Below, piece by piece: positions 725 through 61,860 of a stretch of DNA of 64,000 nucleotides (its first letter is position 1; each line of letters begins with the position of its first letter). Source of the stretch: Escherichia phage GEP101; the sequence record PQ036202, one strand, 5' to 3'. The notes below the pieces were generated by a model. The model was given only the letters and a program-made list of their open reading frames with translations, had not been told where the DNA came from and made no database searches. The position numbers were made by a program, and so were the translations under genes.

Positions 725-800
725 GAATCCGTGACAGAAATGGCTATGTGCCTGTCTGCAAAACAGGTTTATAAGGGTTCGAGTCCCTTCGGATTCTCCA
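725..800 (+). tRNA. tRNA-Cys (anticodon GCA), 76 nt, CCA encoded
   Basis: Perfect 7-bp acceptor GAATCCG/CGGATTC, U8, anticodon stem CCTGT/ACAGG with loop CTGCAAA, T-arm AAGGG-TTCGAGT-CCCTT, discriminator U73 typical of tRNA-Cys. Confidence 0.65.
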
Positions 801-27034: not shown

Positions 27035-27394
27035 TTATGGGAACAGACACTTGATGTCATCATTTTTGAAAACGAAACTTGTGTAGTTGTGACCATCAAC
27101 ATCCAGCCAAACAGCCTGAACATCTACACCATCAAGATTCTGGTAAAGCTCTTTGATGAAGTGGTCTTTTACAACCTGACTGCTAGTTGTTTCCAGCTTA
27201 ATGTTAGAGATTGCTGAACCTACAGCCATATAACCCATGACACGTTTCTTCTCAGTATGCTTAATCTTACCATCTTTGTAAGCCATAATGAGATTGGAAA
27301 GAATCTTCACACCATAATACTTTTCAAGGTGAGTAGGTACACCATAAAAACCTAATGCAAAGTTTTCAGAGTGGATAATGTTTTCACGTTTCAT
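27035..27394 (-). CDS. hypothetical protein
   Basis: 119-aa ORF in leftward operon. Confidence 0.4.
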   Translation of the reverse strand: MKRENIIHSENFALGFYGVPTHLEKYYGVKILSNLIMAYKDGKIKHTEKKRVMGYMAVGSAISNIKLETTSSQVVKDHFIKELYQNLDGVDVQAVWLDVDGHNYTSFVFKNDDIKCLFP

Positions 27395-31331: not shown

Positions 31332-31888
31332 TCAATGTACCTCATACCAGCTCTTACCAACCTTTGCTGTACCAGTTACAAGTGTTTCTTTCCTCAAACC
31401 TAAGTTTTTTGAAGCTTGTCCATACATCCAGTCAGCAATTGCTTTCATATCATGTGTCATACCCTCTGGACATTCCCAACTATTTTCATCGTGATATGCC
31501 AGAAGTAACCTTGCTCCGATAGCTGGTTTTCGAGCATTCAGTTTTGTCAGGCCATCTTCACAGGCTTTTCTTGCTGCTAGGTTGATGGCCTCATTCTGAA
31601 TCTGTGCTTCCGAACTCATCAGGAGGTAGTTCAGTAGTTTATGTGGAGATTTGCACCATATCCATGCTCCAGCGACCCTGATATAACCACCTTTAGCAAT
31701 TGAAGAGTTCTTCCCAAAAACCTCTTCCAGAGCCTTTTTAGACACCTTAAAATCAGCTTCTAAGCTATCAAGTAACTTCTTAATCTTTGGCAAACGCATA
31801 TAGTAAGTTTGTTTAGTCAATGCACCTTCTTCCGTAGATGATGCCTTGATAGTTTTTGCAAACTTCTCATCGCCAGCCCCGAACAATA
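31332..31888 (-). CDS. DNA polymerase family A, exon 2 (C-terminal, motif B second half and motif C)
   Basis: LFGAGDEKFAK aligns with T7 pol FLYGAGDEK; HDE motif C; no ATG at exon start (ORF track begins at TTG). Confidence 0.75.
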
Positions 31889-32156
31889 CATCTGGTCAAT
31901 ACACTCGCAAGGTGTACCAGTTCTCTTATGAACTTCTCCGCATTTCTACGGAGTGTCGGACTATATCACGTAGCAGTGATGCTACCGTTGCACTTGGGGA
32001 TGGCCATTAGCTTACCACCCTACTCTACTCAGTTCATACATTAAGTATGCTTTTCGATAGTCTCTGAACGTTCCTCTTAAGAGGCTTCGCTGCTGATTAC
32101 CATATCTTTCCAGACTTAGGCTTCCAGCAATTCACAACGTTTTACATGCGCCACTG
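31889..32156 (-). ncRNA. group I self-splicing intron (ORF-less) in DNA polymerase gene
   Basis: Minus-strand P/Q/R/S elements AATTGCTGGAA, AATCAGCAGC, GTTCAGAGACTATCG, GTGATATAGTCCG; IGS GCGCAT pairs exon end ATGCGT with U-G at splice site; terminal G. Confidence 0.8.
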
Positions 32157-34299
32157 ACGCATAAATGCCATTTTTGGCTTTCTTACGACCTTTTGTAATC
32201 TCGTGAAGAAGCTCCTCATCCTGCGTCTCCCTACAACGAACAATATCATCTTCCTTGTTTAGACCAAAGTAAATACTATTCAGTGTATGTGCATCAGTAC
32301 CTGTGTAGACTTCGTAGAGGTCATTCTCAGCATCATAACGAAGATACTTATCAGTTTCTGGATTGAGGTACTTATCGAGATGCTTGCAATAGTATCTTCC
32401 ATCCTCTTGCTTGGTAAATTCTACTGACTCTTTACCTTCAGTTACCGCTTTGGTGAAGTCTTTATCACCCATAAAGTTACACAGTAAAACAAGCTGTGCA
32501 GAGTTCTGGTCAACTGAAACGATATTAGTCCCTTCCTCGCAAATCCACACCTCCCTCATAGGTGCTCCATAGACAGCAGCACCAGACGGTACGTTTACAA
32601 TACCATATTGTGTCATACGTCCAGTTGAAGTACCAAATACCATTGCACCGGCACTAAGGCGACCATCAGGGCGAATCTGGTTCAACCAACCTTTTTCATC
32701 ATCCTTTGAGTTCTCAATAGTTCTACGTCGGTGCATCAAAGTGTAGTATTTCGCAATCTTCTGTCCAAGCTCACCTTCAATCGTATCATAAGATGATTCA
32801 GTAAGTTTTGGTGAAGTACGGATTAAGCAAGGCTCAAGCAAATCTGTGTACTTCTTCACAGACCAGTTATGCTCAATGTACTGGACACCTTCATGTTCAA
32901 CATAACTCAAACCACACCGTTCCACCATCTCATCCCACTTAGGATGCTTTGTAATCATCTTTTTGTTGTCTTTGAAACGACAAACTTTGACAGGACGACC
33001 GTCAGAGTCTTTCTTGTAGTTCCAGTCATCTGGAATCCAACCAACTGATTTCAAGTAGTCTTTAACAACTGCTACCTGAGTCATACGAGAAACTTCGAAC
33101 TCAATTGGTGTATATGGTGCATCAATCAAACCTGTGTAGCGACTTGACTCAAGCTCAAAGTGGTTAACGACATGGCTGTTATAGTACTTCACAGTTTTAA
33201 CTGTTTTTACTGGCTTCCAGTCTTTGCACTTCTTACCAATCTTTGCATTCAACTCATTGCAAATTGCACGAGCATCCTTCATTGCTACAAAACCTTCCTT
33301 GTACTCTTCACCAGTTACAGAGTTGGTTGGTGTATAGCAATTCCGCTTTTCAATGTTAAAAATCTTTGTAGTTGGCTTACCAAATGGCTTGATTTCATAT
33401 GTCTGCATCTCACCGTTACGTACCTGTTGACGATACTTTGTCTTAGGGTACTTGGTAATTCTTTTCAGTCCATCTGCATGACCAAATGCTTCAACATACT
33501 CATTCCAAGCTTTTGCAAACTCTTCTCCAGTGACTTTACCTTTGGTCTTAATAGTTGGAGGAAGATGTGGTTCAACTTCTGAAGCAAGCTCATTAGTCAA
33601 CTTGTCAAGTTCCTTTACATGAAACTCCATAAGCTCTTTATCAGCTTTCCAACCATTGATAGCCTGTTGACTCATCCAGAAAGATGTTTCTTTAGCTCGC
33701 ATGTAAGTCTCATAAGTGTCTATACCACACTTCTTAAGCTTGAGATACTCGTTATCAAGTGCCCGTTTAGTTTTGGCGTTGATACGGATATCTTCCACAA
33801 CACGAGTGAAGATTTCTGCATTCCACACACCCCAATGTTCAATCTCTGGTTTACGGACACCAACACGAGCACCCCATGCTGCCAAGCCATGAGCACCTTT
33901 ATAGCCCTTTGGAGTTGGTCTATCCATCCACTGAACACGAGACTGGATAAGAGAATCCTGAAAGAAATTACTCCACGGCTTACACTTTGGATTATCAAAG
34001 TTCCACAAATCAGGTGCAATGTGGTTGAAAACCCACCAGTCATAACCGAGACCGTTATGGATGCAAAGACGTTTTGCCTTTAACGCAAACTCAACACCTT
34101 CACGCAAACCACCCTTAATGTACTTGGTGTACTTGTGACCGAGGATAGGCTCATCTGTAAAGACCCATACAGGTGGCTCTTCATCGTCAGATTTATAGTC
34201 TGCGAAAGCCATGACGTGTACTTTAGTGAACTCAAGGAGTAAACCATCAGTTTCTGTATCACCAACTAAGTGTAAGTTTTTAAAATCTACGTTTTCCAT
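32157..34299 (-). CDS. DNA polymerase family A, exon 1 (3-5 exonuclease and polymerase motif A, first half of motif B)
   Basis: GDTETDGL exo motif (cf. Pol I DTETDSL), DQNSAQLVLL motif A-like, RKKAKNGIYA start of motif B; start at ATG 34299 with GAGGGA RBS. Confidence 0.8.
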
Positions 34300-34554
34300 T
34301 TCTACTCCCTCTAAATCATTAACCACATACATTACTGCAAAAAATTATAAAAAGCAAGTTGACAATGTACTTGACAAGGTGTTAATCTTTGCGAAGTGGG
34401 TTTTTACTTAAAAGGTTACTTAACAGTTTAACTATACAGATACTTTAAAACTCTTAAAAGATTATTTAATAGCTTTTAAAAGTTTTAAAGTATAACGTAT
34501 AGAATACGTTAAGATAAAAGATTAAAACTTAATAGTTACTTAAAAGAGGCTTAC

Positions 34555-51792: not shown

Positions 51793-51822
51793 AAGGGGAC
51801 TGTAAAGGTTCCCTTTTTATTT
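51793..51822 (+). terminator. rho-independent terminator
   Basis: AAGGGGACT-GTAAA-GGTTCCCTT hairpin followed by TTTATTTT. Confidence 0.4.
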
Positions 51823-51832
51823 TGGAGATAAT

Positions 51833-51949
51833 ATGTATCTGTCAAATCTGAAACGTTCTGCTGCAATGTCTGTCCTAAGACTGAGCTTTGAAGAACGTCA
51901 AGAGTTCATTGATTCCCACCAATACGACCCTTCTAACTCGAATTACTGA
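51833..51949 (+). CDS. very small hypothetical ORF (38 aa)
   Basis: ATG 51833 with GGAGA RBS. Confidence 0.25.
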   Translation: MYLSNLKRSAAMSVLRLSFEERQEFIDSHQYDPSNSNY

Positions 51950-51970
51950 TTAGAAAGATTCAAAATGATA

Positions 51971-52000
51971 TTGACGGACTCGTCAAAGATTGGCTATAGT
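51971..52000 (+). promoter_or_regulatory. candidate promoter TTGACG-N18-TATAGT with embedded palindrome TTGACGgactCGTCAA
   Basis: Direct read upstream of methyltransferase gene. Confidence 0.35.
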
Positions 52001-52033
52001 TAGCTCATTGGAACGAAACACAACGGAGTAAAA

Positions 52034-52755
52034 ATGATGGATATTAAAACAGAGAATGCGTGGTTAATGTTTGGTGACTGTCTGGAGCGCATGAAAGAAA
52101 TACCGGACGGTAGCGTGGATATGATTTTGTGTGATTTGCCGTATGGTACGACGCGGAATAAATGGGATTTAGTAATACCTTTCGATAAACTTTGGGCAGA
52201 GTATAAGCGGGTGTGTAGCGGCGCCGTGGTTCTCACTGCCGCGCAGCCCTTCACCTCCGCCCTTATAATGAGTAACCAAAAGGATTTCAAGTATACGTGG
52301 GTGTGGGATAAGGCTACAGCACCGGTTTTCTTAATGCTAAAAAGCAGCCCCTTCGCCAGACAGAAGATATTGTCGTTTTCGGTAAGGTTAAGACTTACAA
52401 TCCAATAATGGAAGTTAGGGGAAAGCCACGCAAGAAAGGAGGGCATAATAAGCCAGGAGGCTCTGATAACTACGGCCGGTTCGGTGACGCAGTTTCTGTC
52501 AATAACGAATATTACCCTACCAATCTGTTGCGCATATCCAACGCGGTGCGCAAGGGTAGGCTGCACCCTACACAGAAGCCAGTGGCCTTGATGGAATACC
52601 TTATCAAGACGTACACCAACGAAGGGGATGTGGTTCTTGATAACTGCATGGGCAGCGGTACAACTGGTGTGGCATGTCGCAACACAAACCGTAAATTCAT
52701 CGGTATTGAAATGGACCCGACTTATTACGGCATTGCGTGTGGGAGAATTTTATGA
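52034..52755 (+). pseudogene. beta-class N6A/N4C DNA methyltransferase, interrupted by a frameshift near 52312..52330
   Basis: Frame A (52034..52408) has DLPYG motif IV-like and VWDK; frame B (open from 52312 to 52755) has HPTQKP and VLDNCMGSGTTGVAC SAM-binding motif I. Confidence 0.65.
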
Positions 52756-52928
52756 CACCAACACTCCTCGAATGGCAACGTAAGCACGGTATCACGGCTG
52801 AGGCTCTGGCTGACCTTGTGACAAAACCAGTACCAGATGGCATAGGTAAATGTTCAGTGATTTATCACGTTGTAGACCCTGCAAAATGCAAATCTGCAAT
52901 GGCAGTAACAAACGTAACTTTTGATTGA
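52737..52928 (+). CDS. hypothetical protein
   Basis: 63-aa ORF overlapping methyltransferase 3-prime end. Confidence 0.3.
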   Translation: MWENFMTPTLLEWQRKHGITAEALADLVTKPVPDGIGKCSVIYHVVDPAKCKSAMAVTNVTFD

Positions 52929-52942
52929 GAGAGAGAGAAACT

Positions 52943-58674: not shown

Positions 58675-59781
58675 ATGACTACTAAAACTAAAGCACAGAT
58701 TGACGCAGAAATTTACAAACTGGTTAAAGAAGGTAAGCTGACTAAAACAGCTATTGCACAGAAGTTCAATACTTCAACCCGTTCAGTTGGTCGTGCTGTA
58801 GAGCGTCATGAAGCAACCTTAAAAGGTAAGAAAAAGGTAGTTTCTAAACCAGCTACAAAGACTTTGAAACAAGTTGCCAAGACCTTTAAAAAGAAAGCTG
58901 ACAAACCAGTTGAAAAGGTTGTTAAAGACACTGTACAGAAAGCTCCAGTAAATAAACTGCATGAAGCTATGCAGAAAGATGACAAGATTGAGTACATGAT
59001 TACTGGTGACTCTGTAATTATGACTTATGGTTCAGAATCTGAAATTGTTGAGTCCACTCATCCGAACTATCAAGAGATTGTAGTTCATGTTGTGAAAGGT
59101 GAGTTCAAGAAAGCCTTTGAACTGATGAACATTCGTAAGTCTATCGAAAACTTCACTCAGGGTGCTATCACAATCAAAGGTGATAAGCTATTCTACGGTG
59201 CTGTTGAGATGCGTTCTACTCTGGTTGACCGTATCCTTCACATGATGAAGACTGGTGATAAAGGTTTTGAACGACTTGTAATGTTCTTCGAAAAACTGAT
59301 GGAAAACCCATCTAAAGGCTCTGTAGAACAACTGTGGGGATTCATATCTCACCTTGATGTTGAAATTGATGAAGAAGGTTACATTATCGGTTGGAAAAAG
59401 GTACAAAGTAAAGCTGACGGTTCTCTGGTAGACAGCCACACCCATAAAGTACCTAATGACTTGGGTAACCTAGTTGAGATGCCTCGTTGGATGGTTGATA
59501 ATGACCCTAACCGCACTTGCTCTCAGGGTTTACATGTTGGTGCATGGGGATATGTATCATGTTTTGGAGGTGATACCATTCTGAAAGTTCGTGTCCATCC
59601 ACGAGATGTTGTATCTGTTCCGACTGATTACAATGATATGAAGATGCGTGTATCAGCTTATGAGTCTTTTGCGATTGTTGACAGCAACCGTAAAGTTATC
59701 AAGGCTCACTCCGGCTCTGGTGGGTATCGTGTAGTGATTGGTTCTCACGGTGAGTTAATCTCCAAGACAGTACGCGTTTAA
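58675..59781 (+). CDS. hypothetical protein, possible rIIB-like partner
   Basis: Position immediately after rIIA-like gene; basic N-terminus; no motif verified. Confidence 0.35.
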   Translation: MTTKTKAQIDAEIYKLVKEGKLTKTAIAQKFNTSTRSVGRAVERHEATLKGKKKVVSKPATKTLKQVAKTFKKKADKPVEKVVKDTVQKAPVNKLHEAMQKDDKIEYMITGDSVIMTYGSESEIVESTHPNYQEIVVHVVKGEFKKAFELMNIRKSIENFTQGAITIKGDKLFYGAVEMRSTLVDRILHMMKTGDKGFERLVMFFEKLMENPSKGSVEQLWGFISHLDVEIDEEGYIIGWKKVQSKADGSLVDSHTHKVPNDLGNLVEMPRWMVDNDPNRTCSQGLHVGAWGYVSCFGGDTILKVRVHPRDVVSVPTDYNDMKMRVSAYESFAIVDSNRKVIKAHSGSGGYRVVIGSHGELISKTVRV

Positions 59782-59792
59782 TAGTTTACAAT

Positions 59793-59816
59793 AGGCTACT
59801 TCGGTAGCCTTTTTTG
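59793..59816 (+). terminator. rho-independent terminator (UUCG loop)
   Basis: AGGCTAC-TTCG-GTAGCCT followed by TTTTT. Confidence 0.55.
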
Positions 59817-59830
59817 ATATGGGAGGATGA

Positions 59831-60730
59831 ATGGCTAAAGCAGAACTTGATAAATACTACACACCAGATGAAGTAATAAGAGTGTGTGAATATAAGCTAC
59901 AAAAGGTCTTTAAAGGCTCTATTTCGTGCATTATAGACCCCTGTGCAGGTGACGGAAGATGGAAAGATTCTTTTAAGAGGGTTTGTCAAGATGTTGTGCT
60001 ATACGACATCGAACCAGACTCTGAGGATGTTAGTACAAGAGACTTCCTGAAAGATGACTTAGAGATTCCAGATAAACCTTTTGCGATTGTTACCAACCCT
60101 CCATTTGGTAAGGCAAATAGTCTGTCTACAAAGTTCTTTAACAAGGCTGCTACAATGAATCCAGACTACATTTGCTTCTTAGTTCCTATTAACTTTGGGA
60201 AGAAGAATCTTAGCAGACTTAGCAGAGAGTACACCTGCATTGACGAAGTAGAACTACCTAACCTTCATTTTGAAAGGATTGATGGAGTTACCTACTCAGC
60301 AAAAGAGTCGTCACTACGCTGTAACTTCCAAATCTGGAAGAGACAAAAGCGGACAGATGAAACTTGTAAGATTGTTCCTGTGATAGTTGATGGTGTAAGA
60401 GTCTATAAGCGTGAGAAATTCACACTATACAGGCCACCATGTCACAAGATTGATGGTAAAGAACAGCCAGTAGGTGTTTTAGGCAAACTGGATGGAAAAG
60501 ATTTGTTCACGATTATTACACATGGTCGTAAGGCTGGTACTGTGAAGGTCTTTGAACCAGATAAAGATAAGGTGTCTGTGAAACAATTTATCGAGCCTCA
60601 CATAGAAGGGCTTTACTCAGCAATCAAACAGGATTGGTTCGAAGATTTAAGAGATGGTTTTGCGCTGAGTTATGCAGGTTCGATAAATTCACAGGAAATC
60701 ATAGAAACCATAGAAAAACATTTGCATTAA
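59831..60730 (+). CDS. gamma-class N6-adenine DNA methyltransferase
   Basis: YYTPDEV, DPCAGDG (motif I) and NPPF (motif IV) in gamma order. Confidence 0.65.
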   Translation: MAKAELDKYYTPDEVIRVCEYKLQKVFKGSISCIIDPCAGDGRWKDSFKRVCQDVVLYDIEPDSEDVSTRDFLKDDLEIPDKPFAIVTNPPFGKANSLSTKFFNKAATMNPDYICFLVPINFGKKNLSRLSREYTCIDEVELPNLHFERIDGVTYSAKESSLRCNFQIWKRQKRTDETCKIVPVIVDGVRVYKREKFTLYRPPCHKIDGKEQPVGVLGKLDGKDLFTIITHGRKAGTVKVFEPDKDKVSVKQFIEPHIEGLYSAIKQDWFEDLRDGFALSYAGSINSQEIIETIEKHLH

Positions 60731-60785
60731 TAAAAGAATGTGTGTAGTATACCTGTAAACAAACCAAGTAGATGAGAGAGTAATC

Positions 60786-61625
60786 ATGAAATTCAAAGAG
60801 TTCCAGAGCAAAACACCTTGTAAGATTGATTTCGTTTGTGGTGTAGCCTCATTCTTCATGGGGTACATGGACTGGGCTAACTGTGCAAAACCTTACTCAG
60901 CAAACCGTAGCATCGAGCGACGTATTACAAAACCATATCTTAATGAAGACCTTCGTGAGGTGGATTTACGTTCCCGTGTTACGGGTGTACTGTTCAATGG
61001 AGAAGTTATCAACATTGATTCTCATGCTCGTGTAGAGAACTGGAAGAATGGTAAATTAGGTGCTCCCAAGAACGGCCTTGTCTATGTGACCCTGTTTGCT
61101 GTTAATTCACAGGAAGAAGTAGATTTCCTCTACGACCAAGAAAACTCACTGGACTCACGAGCTACGAATGGTGACCAAATTACAACTGCAATACTACGCT
61201 CTGGTTATAAGCCACAGACAGCGTTCACCAAGAAATTTACTGGTGCTGGTGTGTGGGCCTTATTAGGTCTCCGTGGATGCCTTGATGAAGCATTTGTACT
61301 CTATCAAGAAGAGCTTAAACTTATTGATGCACTTGGCATTGATAAGGATGAGATGGATAAGTACAAAGAGAAGACTGTAAATGGTGTTAAGCAGAAGTGT
61401 GAACTGCGTAAAAAGTACTCTGCTCCAATTATGGCAGCAATGCTTAAGAGCTTCAAAGAAAACCCTGAAAAGGCTACAAAGTTCTGGTTGGACTACCGTG
61501 ATGATGATGAGTCTGTAAGCAGCTTCTTAGATGCCATGAAGACCCAGTATGACCAGAATGGTGGTGTGTTTCAAGGTTATGTAATGTCACAAGCTGACGT
61601 TGCATTTAGAGCTTATAAGGACTGA
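60786..61625 (+). CDS. hypothetical protein
   Basis: 279-aa ORF. Confidence 0.35.
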   Translation: MKFKEFQSKTPCKIDFVCGVASFFMGYMDWANCAKPYSANRSIERRITKPYLNEDLREVDLRSRVTGVLFNGEVINIDSHARVENWKNGKLGAPKNGLVYVTLFAVNSQEEVDFLYDQENSLDSRATNGDQITTAILRSGYKPQTAFTKKFTGAGVWALLGLRGCLDEAFVLYQEELKLIDALGIDKDEMDKYKEKTVNGVKQKCELRKKYSAPIMAAMLKSFKENPEKATKFWLDYRDDDESVSSFLDAMKTQYDQNGGVFQGYVMSQADVAFRAYKD

Positions 61626-61860
61626 TATGCAAGTTAAAAAGATGATGGTAAGAGTTGCTCTCAAGTATCTGGGGGCAGCTACACAATACGAAGTAGCAGA
61701 GTACCTCTCTGCAAAGTTTGGTAAAAAATATCTCCCATCGGATTTTACACAGACTTTTATAGACTTAGAGAAGACGAAGACTATCACTAAGTTACCTGTT
61801 AAGCGTCGTAACTTTCGTAATGGGAAACCTACAGGTTTTGGGAACCTCTACGTAATGTAA
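61600..61860 (+). CDS. hypothetical protein
   Basis: 86-aa ORF. Confidence 0.3.
   Translation: MHLELIRTDMQVKKMMVRVALKYLGAATQYEVAEYLSAKFGKKYLPSDFTQTFIDLEKTKTITKLPVKRRNFRNGKPTGFGNLYVM

Follow-up and report, generated by a model that had tools for sequence, protein, structure and literature searches.

The closest described relative of the locus is found in Salmonella phage S19cd, which carries an intact gene annotated "modification methylase" (QVW09179.1; 723 nt, 240 aa), and the proteins P0001 and P0123 from uncultured Felixounavirus contigs are identical or near-identical to its product, of the same length and likewise intact. Protein searches recovered further intact copies (99% identical) on two uncultured Felixounavirus contigs that derive from independent runs and share the same neighbour genes, and two other 240-aa members of the cluster were also intact. 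Siphoviruses of the Deseoctovirus-like (C1, Bas80) and Jerseyvirus (S102, dunkel) types encode PF01555 methyltransferases of the same family and length with the same DLPY motif IV, and CcrM, YhdJ, H. pylori DpnA/M1.HpyAVI, M.RsrI and M.MboIIA have the same permuted motif order (IV...I) and the HPTQKP/GSGTT AdoMet region. Matches in the PDB to characterised beta-class enzymes had E values of 3.5e-17 to 5e-13, the similarity being only partial, and the NCBIfam equivalog cutoffs were missed (78.8 vs 830 bits for CcrM; 71.3 vs 292 bits for the YhdJ type). Scores this far under the cutoffs mean that target specificity is not transferable, and the "M.BabI" label attached to the S19cd protein should not be equated with GANTC specificity. 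Our literature search found no paper discussing the Felixounavirus methylase cassette.

The window (the whole stretch of DNA analysed here, 64,000 nt) was placed by megablast in Felixounavirus (Felix O1-like myoviruses). Across 24 kb it shares 95-96% identity with Shigella phage Z31 and with the Salmonella phages S19cd and SEP1, and the phage collection contained no record closer to the window than these three. Its PF01555 beta-class DNA methyltransferase gene lies at 52034-52755, with motif IV (DLPY) first and motif I (GSGTTG) last. S19cd has the same cassette, junctions, promoter-like site and Shine-Dalgarno sequence (96% DNA identity across the region), and the window copy of the gene lacks one A at codon 95. 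We consider this to be a real, recent inactivating 1-nt deletion in an acquired orphan methyltransferase gene, and give that reading a probability of about 0.6. The parts of the region that surround the gene are as follows:

51793-51825, plus strand: terminator-like hairpin with a T run (Rho-independent), from a terminator scan; closes the upstream operon and is native to Felixounavirus
51833-51949, plus strand: remnant (38 codons) of the displaced HNH-like gene, ending at the left cassette junction
51952-52819, no strand assigned: acquired cassette, 868 bp replacing ~580 bp, delimited by alignments with AYO145A and Z31
51971-52000, plus strand: sigma-70-like promoter candidate, TTGACG-N18-TATAGT, from a scan (10 of 12 consensus matches), inside the cassette
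52025-52028, plus strand: Shine-Dalgarno sequence GGAG, 5 nt upstream of the ATG at 52034, from inspection of the sequence
52752-52928, plus strand: chimeric ORF of 58 aa whose ATG overlaps the methylase stop codon (ATGA)

Homology to AYO145A, an ordinary member of the genus, extends to 51951 and resumes at ~52820, and the displaced segment corresponds in ordinary Felixounaviruses to portions of two genes, phrog_3500 (its 3' part) and phrog_4726 (its 5' part). What is left of the first of these matches positions 1-38 of the 170 in the phrog_3500 profile (E 2e-14; a Felix01p229/AYO145A_126 homologue), while the second survives in the chimeric ORF, the first ~23 aa of which are cassette-derived and the last 35 aa of which are the native C-terminus of the phrog_4726 (Felix01p233-like) protein (residues 21-58 match profile positions 55-92 of 92). 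The terminator at 51793-51825 is annotated in AYO145A and is identical in S19cd, SP4 and AYO145A. Among 262 flank-matching Felixounavirus records only four carry the methylase (S19cd, SP4, SEP1 and SP2), and the left junction is identical among the aligned carriers, which points to one ancestral insertion. The displaced phrog_3500 gene (AYO145A 1536-2051) has weak similarity to an HNH endonuclease (phrog_2214, E 2.4e-4), and for that reason the slot may be a hot spot for homing endonucleases or mobile genes.

Base composition agrees with acquisition from elsewhere. The original prediction had drawn a GC-rich island at 51830-52930, and sliding-window computation bears out the G+C excess for the gene itself (0.471 vs 0.393 for the whole window), which lies about 3.4 standard deviations above the background of 722-nt windows across the 64 kb (sd 0.023), with only 0.36% of such windows at or above its value. 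The limits proposed for the island were too wide, the rich part being 52100-52822: the top-G+C 722-nt window of all 64 kb is 52101-52822 (0.488), the cassette as a whole has 0.468, and G+C is only 0.382 at 51830-52033 and 0.387 at 52820-52930. The stretch 51830-51951 does not belong to it at all, as it is native Felixounavirus sequence with the remnant of the displaced gene. The gene body shares 85-86% DNA identity with methylase genes on ~48-kb siphovirus contigs (48% G+C), in which the methylase follows a ParB-like gene and the flanks are ~92% identical to phages of the Deseoctovirus type such as Escherichia phage C1 and Bas80. At the protein level the siphovirus enzymes are 83-85% (uncultured contigs) and 75% (Jerseyvirus; 74.8%) identical to that of the window, and it is because genomes of this source type have 48-49% G+C that the gene stands out as a compositional island. 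The context is different in each case, the gene being divergently transcribed in Jerseyvirus, and neither siphovirus group has flanks related to those of the Felixounavirus cassette. With the cassette confined to few records, donor-like genes at 85-86% identity and a G+C of 47.1% against 39.3%, the horizontal acquisition proposed earlier is well supported. A Felixounavirus sub-lineage would have acquired a small cassette with an orphan PF01555 methyltransferase from the pool of 43-48 kb enterobacterial siphoviruses, and the cassette would have overwritten the HNH-like gene and brought in a sigma-70-like promoter and a Shine-Dalgarno sequence.

The three remaining carriers, SP4, SEP1 and SP2, have the slot and left junction of the window and near-identical N- and C-terminal ends of the gene, whereas the central part is a divergent allele, such that the repaired protein is only 71% identical to that of the window. 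This divergent centre, which presumably includes the target-recognition region, lies between near-identical ends and therefore suggests a later allele exchange. The gene is annotated in these phages as a pair, 'adenine-specific methyltransferase' plus 'DNA methylase', with a frameshift ~25 nt downstream of that in the window (SP4 record segment 2037-2068); the lesion is one additional A in an A6 run near codon 103, opposite in sign to the deletion of the window.

Expression of the intact gene would plausibly start from the promoter candidate of the cassette. This candidate sits just downstream of the conserved terminator and is kept in S19cd and SP4, and promoter-like sites are not enriched in the region (6 found vs 6.6 expected from shuffles). 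The original prediction had proposed a promoter with an embedded palindrome here; both elements are present, with TTGACGgactCGTCAA lying inside the TTGACG-N18-TATAGT site, but the palindrome is at chance level, being one of 42 perfect 6+4+6 palindromes in the window, and we rejected it as a distinct operator feature. The neighbours of the methylase are a DUF7390 gene, the chimeric ORF of 58 aa, prs and a NAMPT gene, and none of them is a restriction endonuclease gene, for which reason the intact enzyme is classed as an orphan methyltransferase. As a separate observation, (GA)n tracts precede the start codons of prs (52926-52938) and of an ORF at 58675 (~58658), and their repeat number varies between the window, S19cd and Z31.

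The coding region itself is divided as follows:

52034-52408, plus strand: ORF1, 124 aa, comprising methyltransferase residues 1-94, followed by 30 codons out of frame up to a TAA stop
52312-52755, plus strand: second methyltransferase frame, open after the TAA at 52309-52311, with HPTQKP and motif I GSGTTG
52316-52317, plus strand: 1-nt deletion, one A of GCTAACAGC lost at codon 95 (Asn in intact relatives), from the alignment with S19cd

A beta-class methyltransferase split over two frames had been predicted from the sequence, with DLPYG in the first frame and HPTQKP and VLDNCMGSGTTGVAC in the second, open from 52312, and our analysis agrees on each of these points. ORF1 contains CDLPYG, with the DLPY of motif IV at residues 34-37, and in the repaired protein GSGTTG follows at residues 207-212, which is the permuted order. 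The PF01555 model gives ORF2 alone 87.5 bits and the intact S19cd orthologue 111.3 bits against a Pfam gathering score of 26.7, and ORF1 alone stays below that cutoff. Among 12 aligned homologues D34, L35, P36, Y37 and G38 are invariant, so that the second position of motif IV is always Leu and not Pro, and a further 11 invariant positions (G98, L100, N101, A102, K103, Q105, P106, L107, R108, D112 and F116) form a block at residues 98-116 (G-L-N-A-K-Q-P-L-R...D...F). Motif IV opens with Asp34 and, among relatives of solved structure, the best matches are adenine enzymes, on which basis the intact enzyme is probably N6-adenine specific; PvuII-type N4C enzymes also match (E 5e-10).

The frame switch had been placed near 52312-52330 and outside a homopolymer, and alignment to the intact S19cd gene locates a single 1-nt deletion at 52316/52317, within that interval. 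GCTAACAGC in S19cd reads GCTACAGC in the window (aligned, GGCTAACAGC against GGCT-ACAGC), which is the sole length difference within the gene. The lost base is one A of an AA dinucleotide, outside any homopolymer run of at least 3 nt. Restoring one A yields a 240-aa open frame with no internal stops, 98% identical to the S19cd protein (8 synonymous and 5 non-synonymous differences between the genes), 99% identical to the Logan protein P0001 and only 2 residues away from the consensus protein P0123.

In the record as it stands, no single uninterrupted frame holds all the motifs, and residues 95-125 cannot be translated in the correct frame. ORF2 (52408-52755, 115 aa) begins at the first start codon of the second frame; neither the ORF list nor the sequence offers an ATG, GTG or TTG in that frame before 52408, leaving codons 96-125 (52312-52407) without an initiation codon. 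The loss of one A would thus shift the frame to give 94 native residues and a 30-residue nonsense tail, the AdoMet-binding half would arise, if at all, only as a separate product initiated at the ATG at 52408, and the block of residues 98-116, falling in the stretch without a start codon, would not be producible. This last point and the shift of frame together suggest that the gene is a fresh pseudogene and that the phage would be without this methylation.

The deletion could also belong to the record and not to the phage, which would then carry GCTAACAGC and an intact 240-aa enzyme, one A having been dropped in sequencing or assembly; we regard this as possible but on balance unlikely. The deletion is private to this sequence, a circumstance that counts against a real mutation: the deletion allele had no exact match in IMG/VR, the JGI metagenomes or the GTDB genomes (the intact allele had none in IMG/VR either), and exact look-ups found neither the ORF1 nor the ORF2 product on record, so there is no independent witness for it. 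Every close relative of the allele that is recorded full-length is intact (S19cd, L089, L090, P0122 and P0123), as are the more distant relatives in IMG/VR (≤62% identity), where all of the 80 best-scoring loci gave a single-frame match, a ranking biased to intact copies. An AA dinucleotide is, moreover, a minimal homopolymer that some platforms undercall. The repaired ORF is fully open and near-identical to the consensus, and the lack of secondary decay in it fits a very recent event and an artefact equally well. Against an error stand the quality of the remaining sequence and the site itself. A comparison with S19cd and Z31 took in ~120 conserved reference ORFs, each 90 aa or longer, and of the annotated genes in the window only the methylase proved to be broken by a frameshift. 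Antisense ORFs, an effect of the window edge and the intron-split polymerase account for the other flags. Where the window otherwise differs from relatives in length by a single base, the place is intergenic or at the end of a gene, or the window has the common state, so the assembly does not look prone to indels. The site is not among the ten homopolymer runs of at least 4 nt in the gene. A non-homopolymer site and the absence of any other broken conserved gene in the 64 kb favour a real mutation over a sequencing error, and we also count in its favour that other copies of this enzyme type are frame-broken (SP4/SEP1/SP2, C1/S192, 011D4 and P0125).

Several items noted during the comparison concern other genes. 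A candidate second frameshift at 27063 (T5 vs T4 in S19cd), the other 1-nt length difference from S19cd within coding sequence, was rejected, T5 apparently being the common state, as judged by equal match lengths in the sampled records. The DNA polymerase gene is interrupted by a group I intron (31936-32219, minus strand; Rfam RF00028, 62.1 bits, full-length match to the model) and so appears as a pair of ORFs, 32116-34332 and 31332-31886 (both on the minus strand); it is split in S19cd too and is uninterrupted in Shigella phage Z31 (909 aa). The anaerobic ribonucleotide reductase gene nrdD of S19cd has a ~315-bp insertion (S19cd segment 424-740; window 48680) that leaves two annotated ORFs, and nrdD is uninterrupted in the window and in Z31. 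Two tRNA genes are present at 628-717 and 725-797 (plus strand; Rfam RF00005, 46.2 and 56.4 bits).

Frame breaks in the middle of the gene are not peculiar to the window. Five apparently independent ones fall at codons 95-119: those of the window and of the SP4 group, one in the Logan protein P0125 after KKQP (near codon 106), one in Deseoctovirus C1/S192 in a T run near codon 116 (C1 record segment ~939) and one in Krischvirus 011D4 near codon 119 (record segment ~960-970), for which our conservation check found only that one record with a split methylase. The breaks of the PF01555 relatives, at codons 103-119, lie for the most part within short runs of A, C or T, and 4 of the 10 homopolymer runs of the window gene cluster at 52326-52379 (T4, A5, C4 and T4), which offers a simple mutational explanation for mid-gene breaks; detection is, in addition, biased to mid-gene splits. 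That these codons are a recurrent frameshift site acting as a heritable on/off switch or as a source of two-piece enzymes strikes us as improbable, the shifts needed being of different sign and the lesion of the window lying outside any run. If there were such a switch, turning the enzyme off could be an advantage on hosts whose restriction depends on methylation (Type IV).

The same clustering, together with the fact that both frames are open across 52312-52408, could be taken to mean that a programmed -1 frameshift or transcriptional slippage in this interval yields a full-length active enzyme, possibly under regulation. The A5 run at 52339-52343 (CTA AAA AGC) could permit low-level slippage on a single tRNA-Lys, but a slip there would still mistranslate residues 95-102, including the invariant G98, L100 and N101. 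The break is not shared by the closest relatives, which have a single ORF, and other broken copies would need a shift of different sign (+1 in SP4, -1 in the window). Our scan of the zero frame across the 52312-52408 overlap turned up no X XXY YYZ heptamer, and RNA from 52305-52425 is no more stably folded than its shuffled versions (z = 0.21), on which grounds the -1 frameshift was rejected and recoding as a whole appears highly improbable. Of the three options offered by the original prediction (inactivation, error or recoding), inactivation is therefore favoured, error is left as its rival and recoding is opposed by the intact relatives, the missing heptamer and the unremarkable fold.

We think it just as hard to credit that the two products function together, with the catalytic fragment from ORF1 assembling with the AdoMet-binding fragment from ORF2 and the latter made by termination-reinitiation. 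The stop of ORF1 and the start of ORF2 do overlap (TAATG at 52406-52410), in PHROGs the N-halves and C-halves of this enzyme type belong to distinct families (phrog_12862 and phrog_18293), and the ORF pair of Krischvirus 011D4 together keeps all the conserved blocks. In the window, residues 95-125 with their 11 invariant positions are in the correct frame in neither ORF, and ORF2 has neither an earlier start codon in its frame nor, on inspection of the sequence, a Shine-Dalgarno sequence ahead of 52408.

Under the preferred reading, a real inactivating deletion, the finding is an ordinary one: an acquired orphan methyltransferase, already annotated as intact in a close relative, with a private one-base deletion, and the split methylase leaves current understanding unchallenged. 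ORF1 and ORF2 should be recorded in annotation as one disrupted methyltransferase gene. The intact 240-aa enzyme, which S19cd and several uncultured Felixounavirus contigs encode, would be expressed from a promoter of its own, methylate the phage DNA and blunt host restriction; its activity and its protective role are both deduced from family membership. Remarkable sensitivity to several restriction-modification systems has been reported for a Felixounavirus (PMC8594841), which is why an intact methylase would be useful to such a phage. The window also contains a second, intact ORF for a putative N6-adenine methyltransferase (59831-60730, plus strand; 299 aa, NPPF at residue 89; PF02384 21.1 bits vs a cutoff of 20.4) in an accessory block (~59650-61860) that is absent from S19cd and aligns in Z31. 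SEP1 has an annotated DNA N6-adenine methyltransferase within the matched 24-kb region, which may correspond to this ORF. Through this putative gene the phage may still methylate its own DNA. The phage should not be assumed to carry the methylation that relatives of the S19cd type probably have, and the presence, absence or inactivation of the methylase could affect host range in cocktails for phage therapy or biocontrol.
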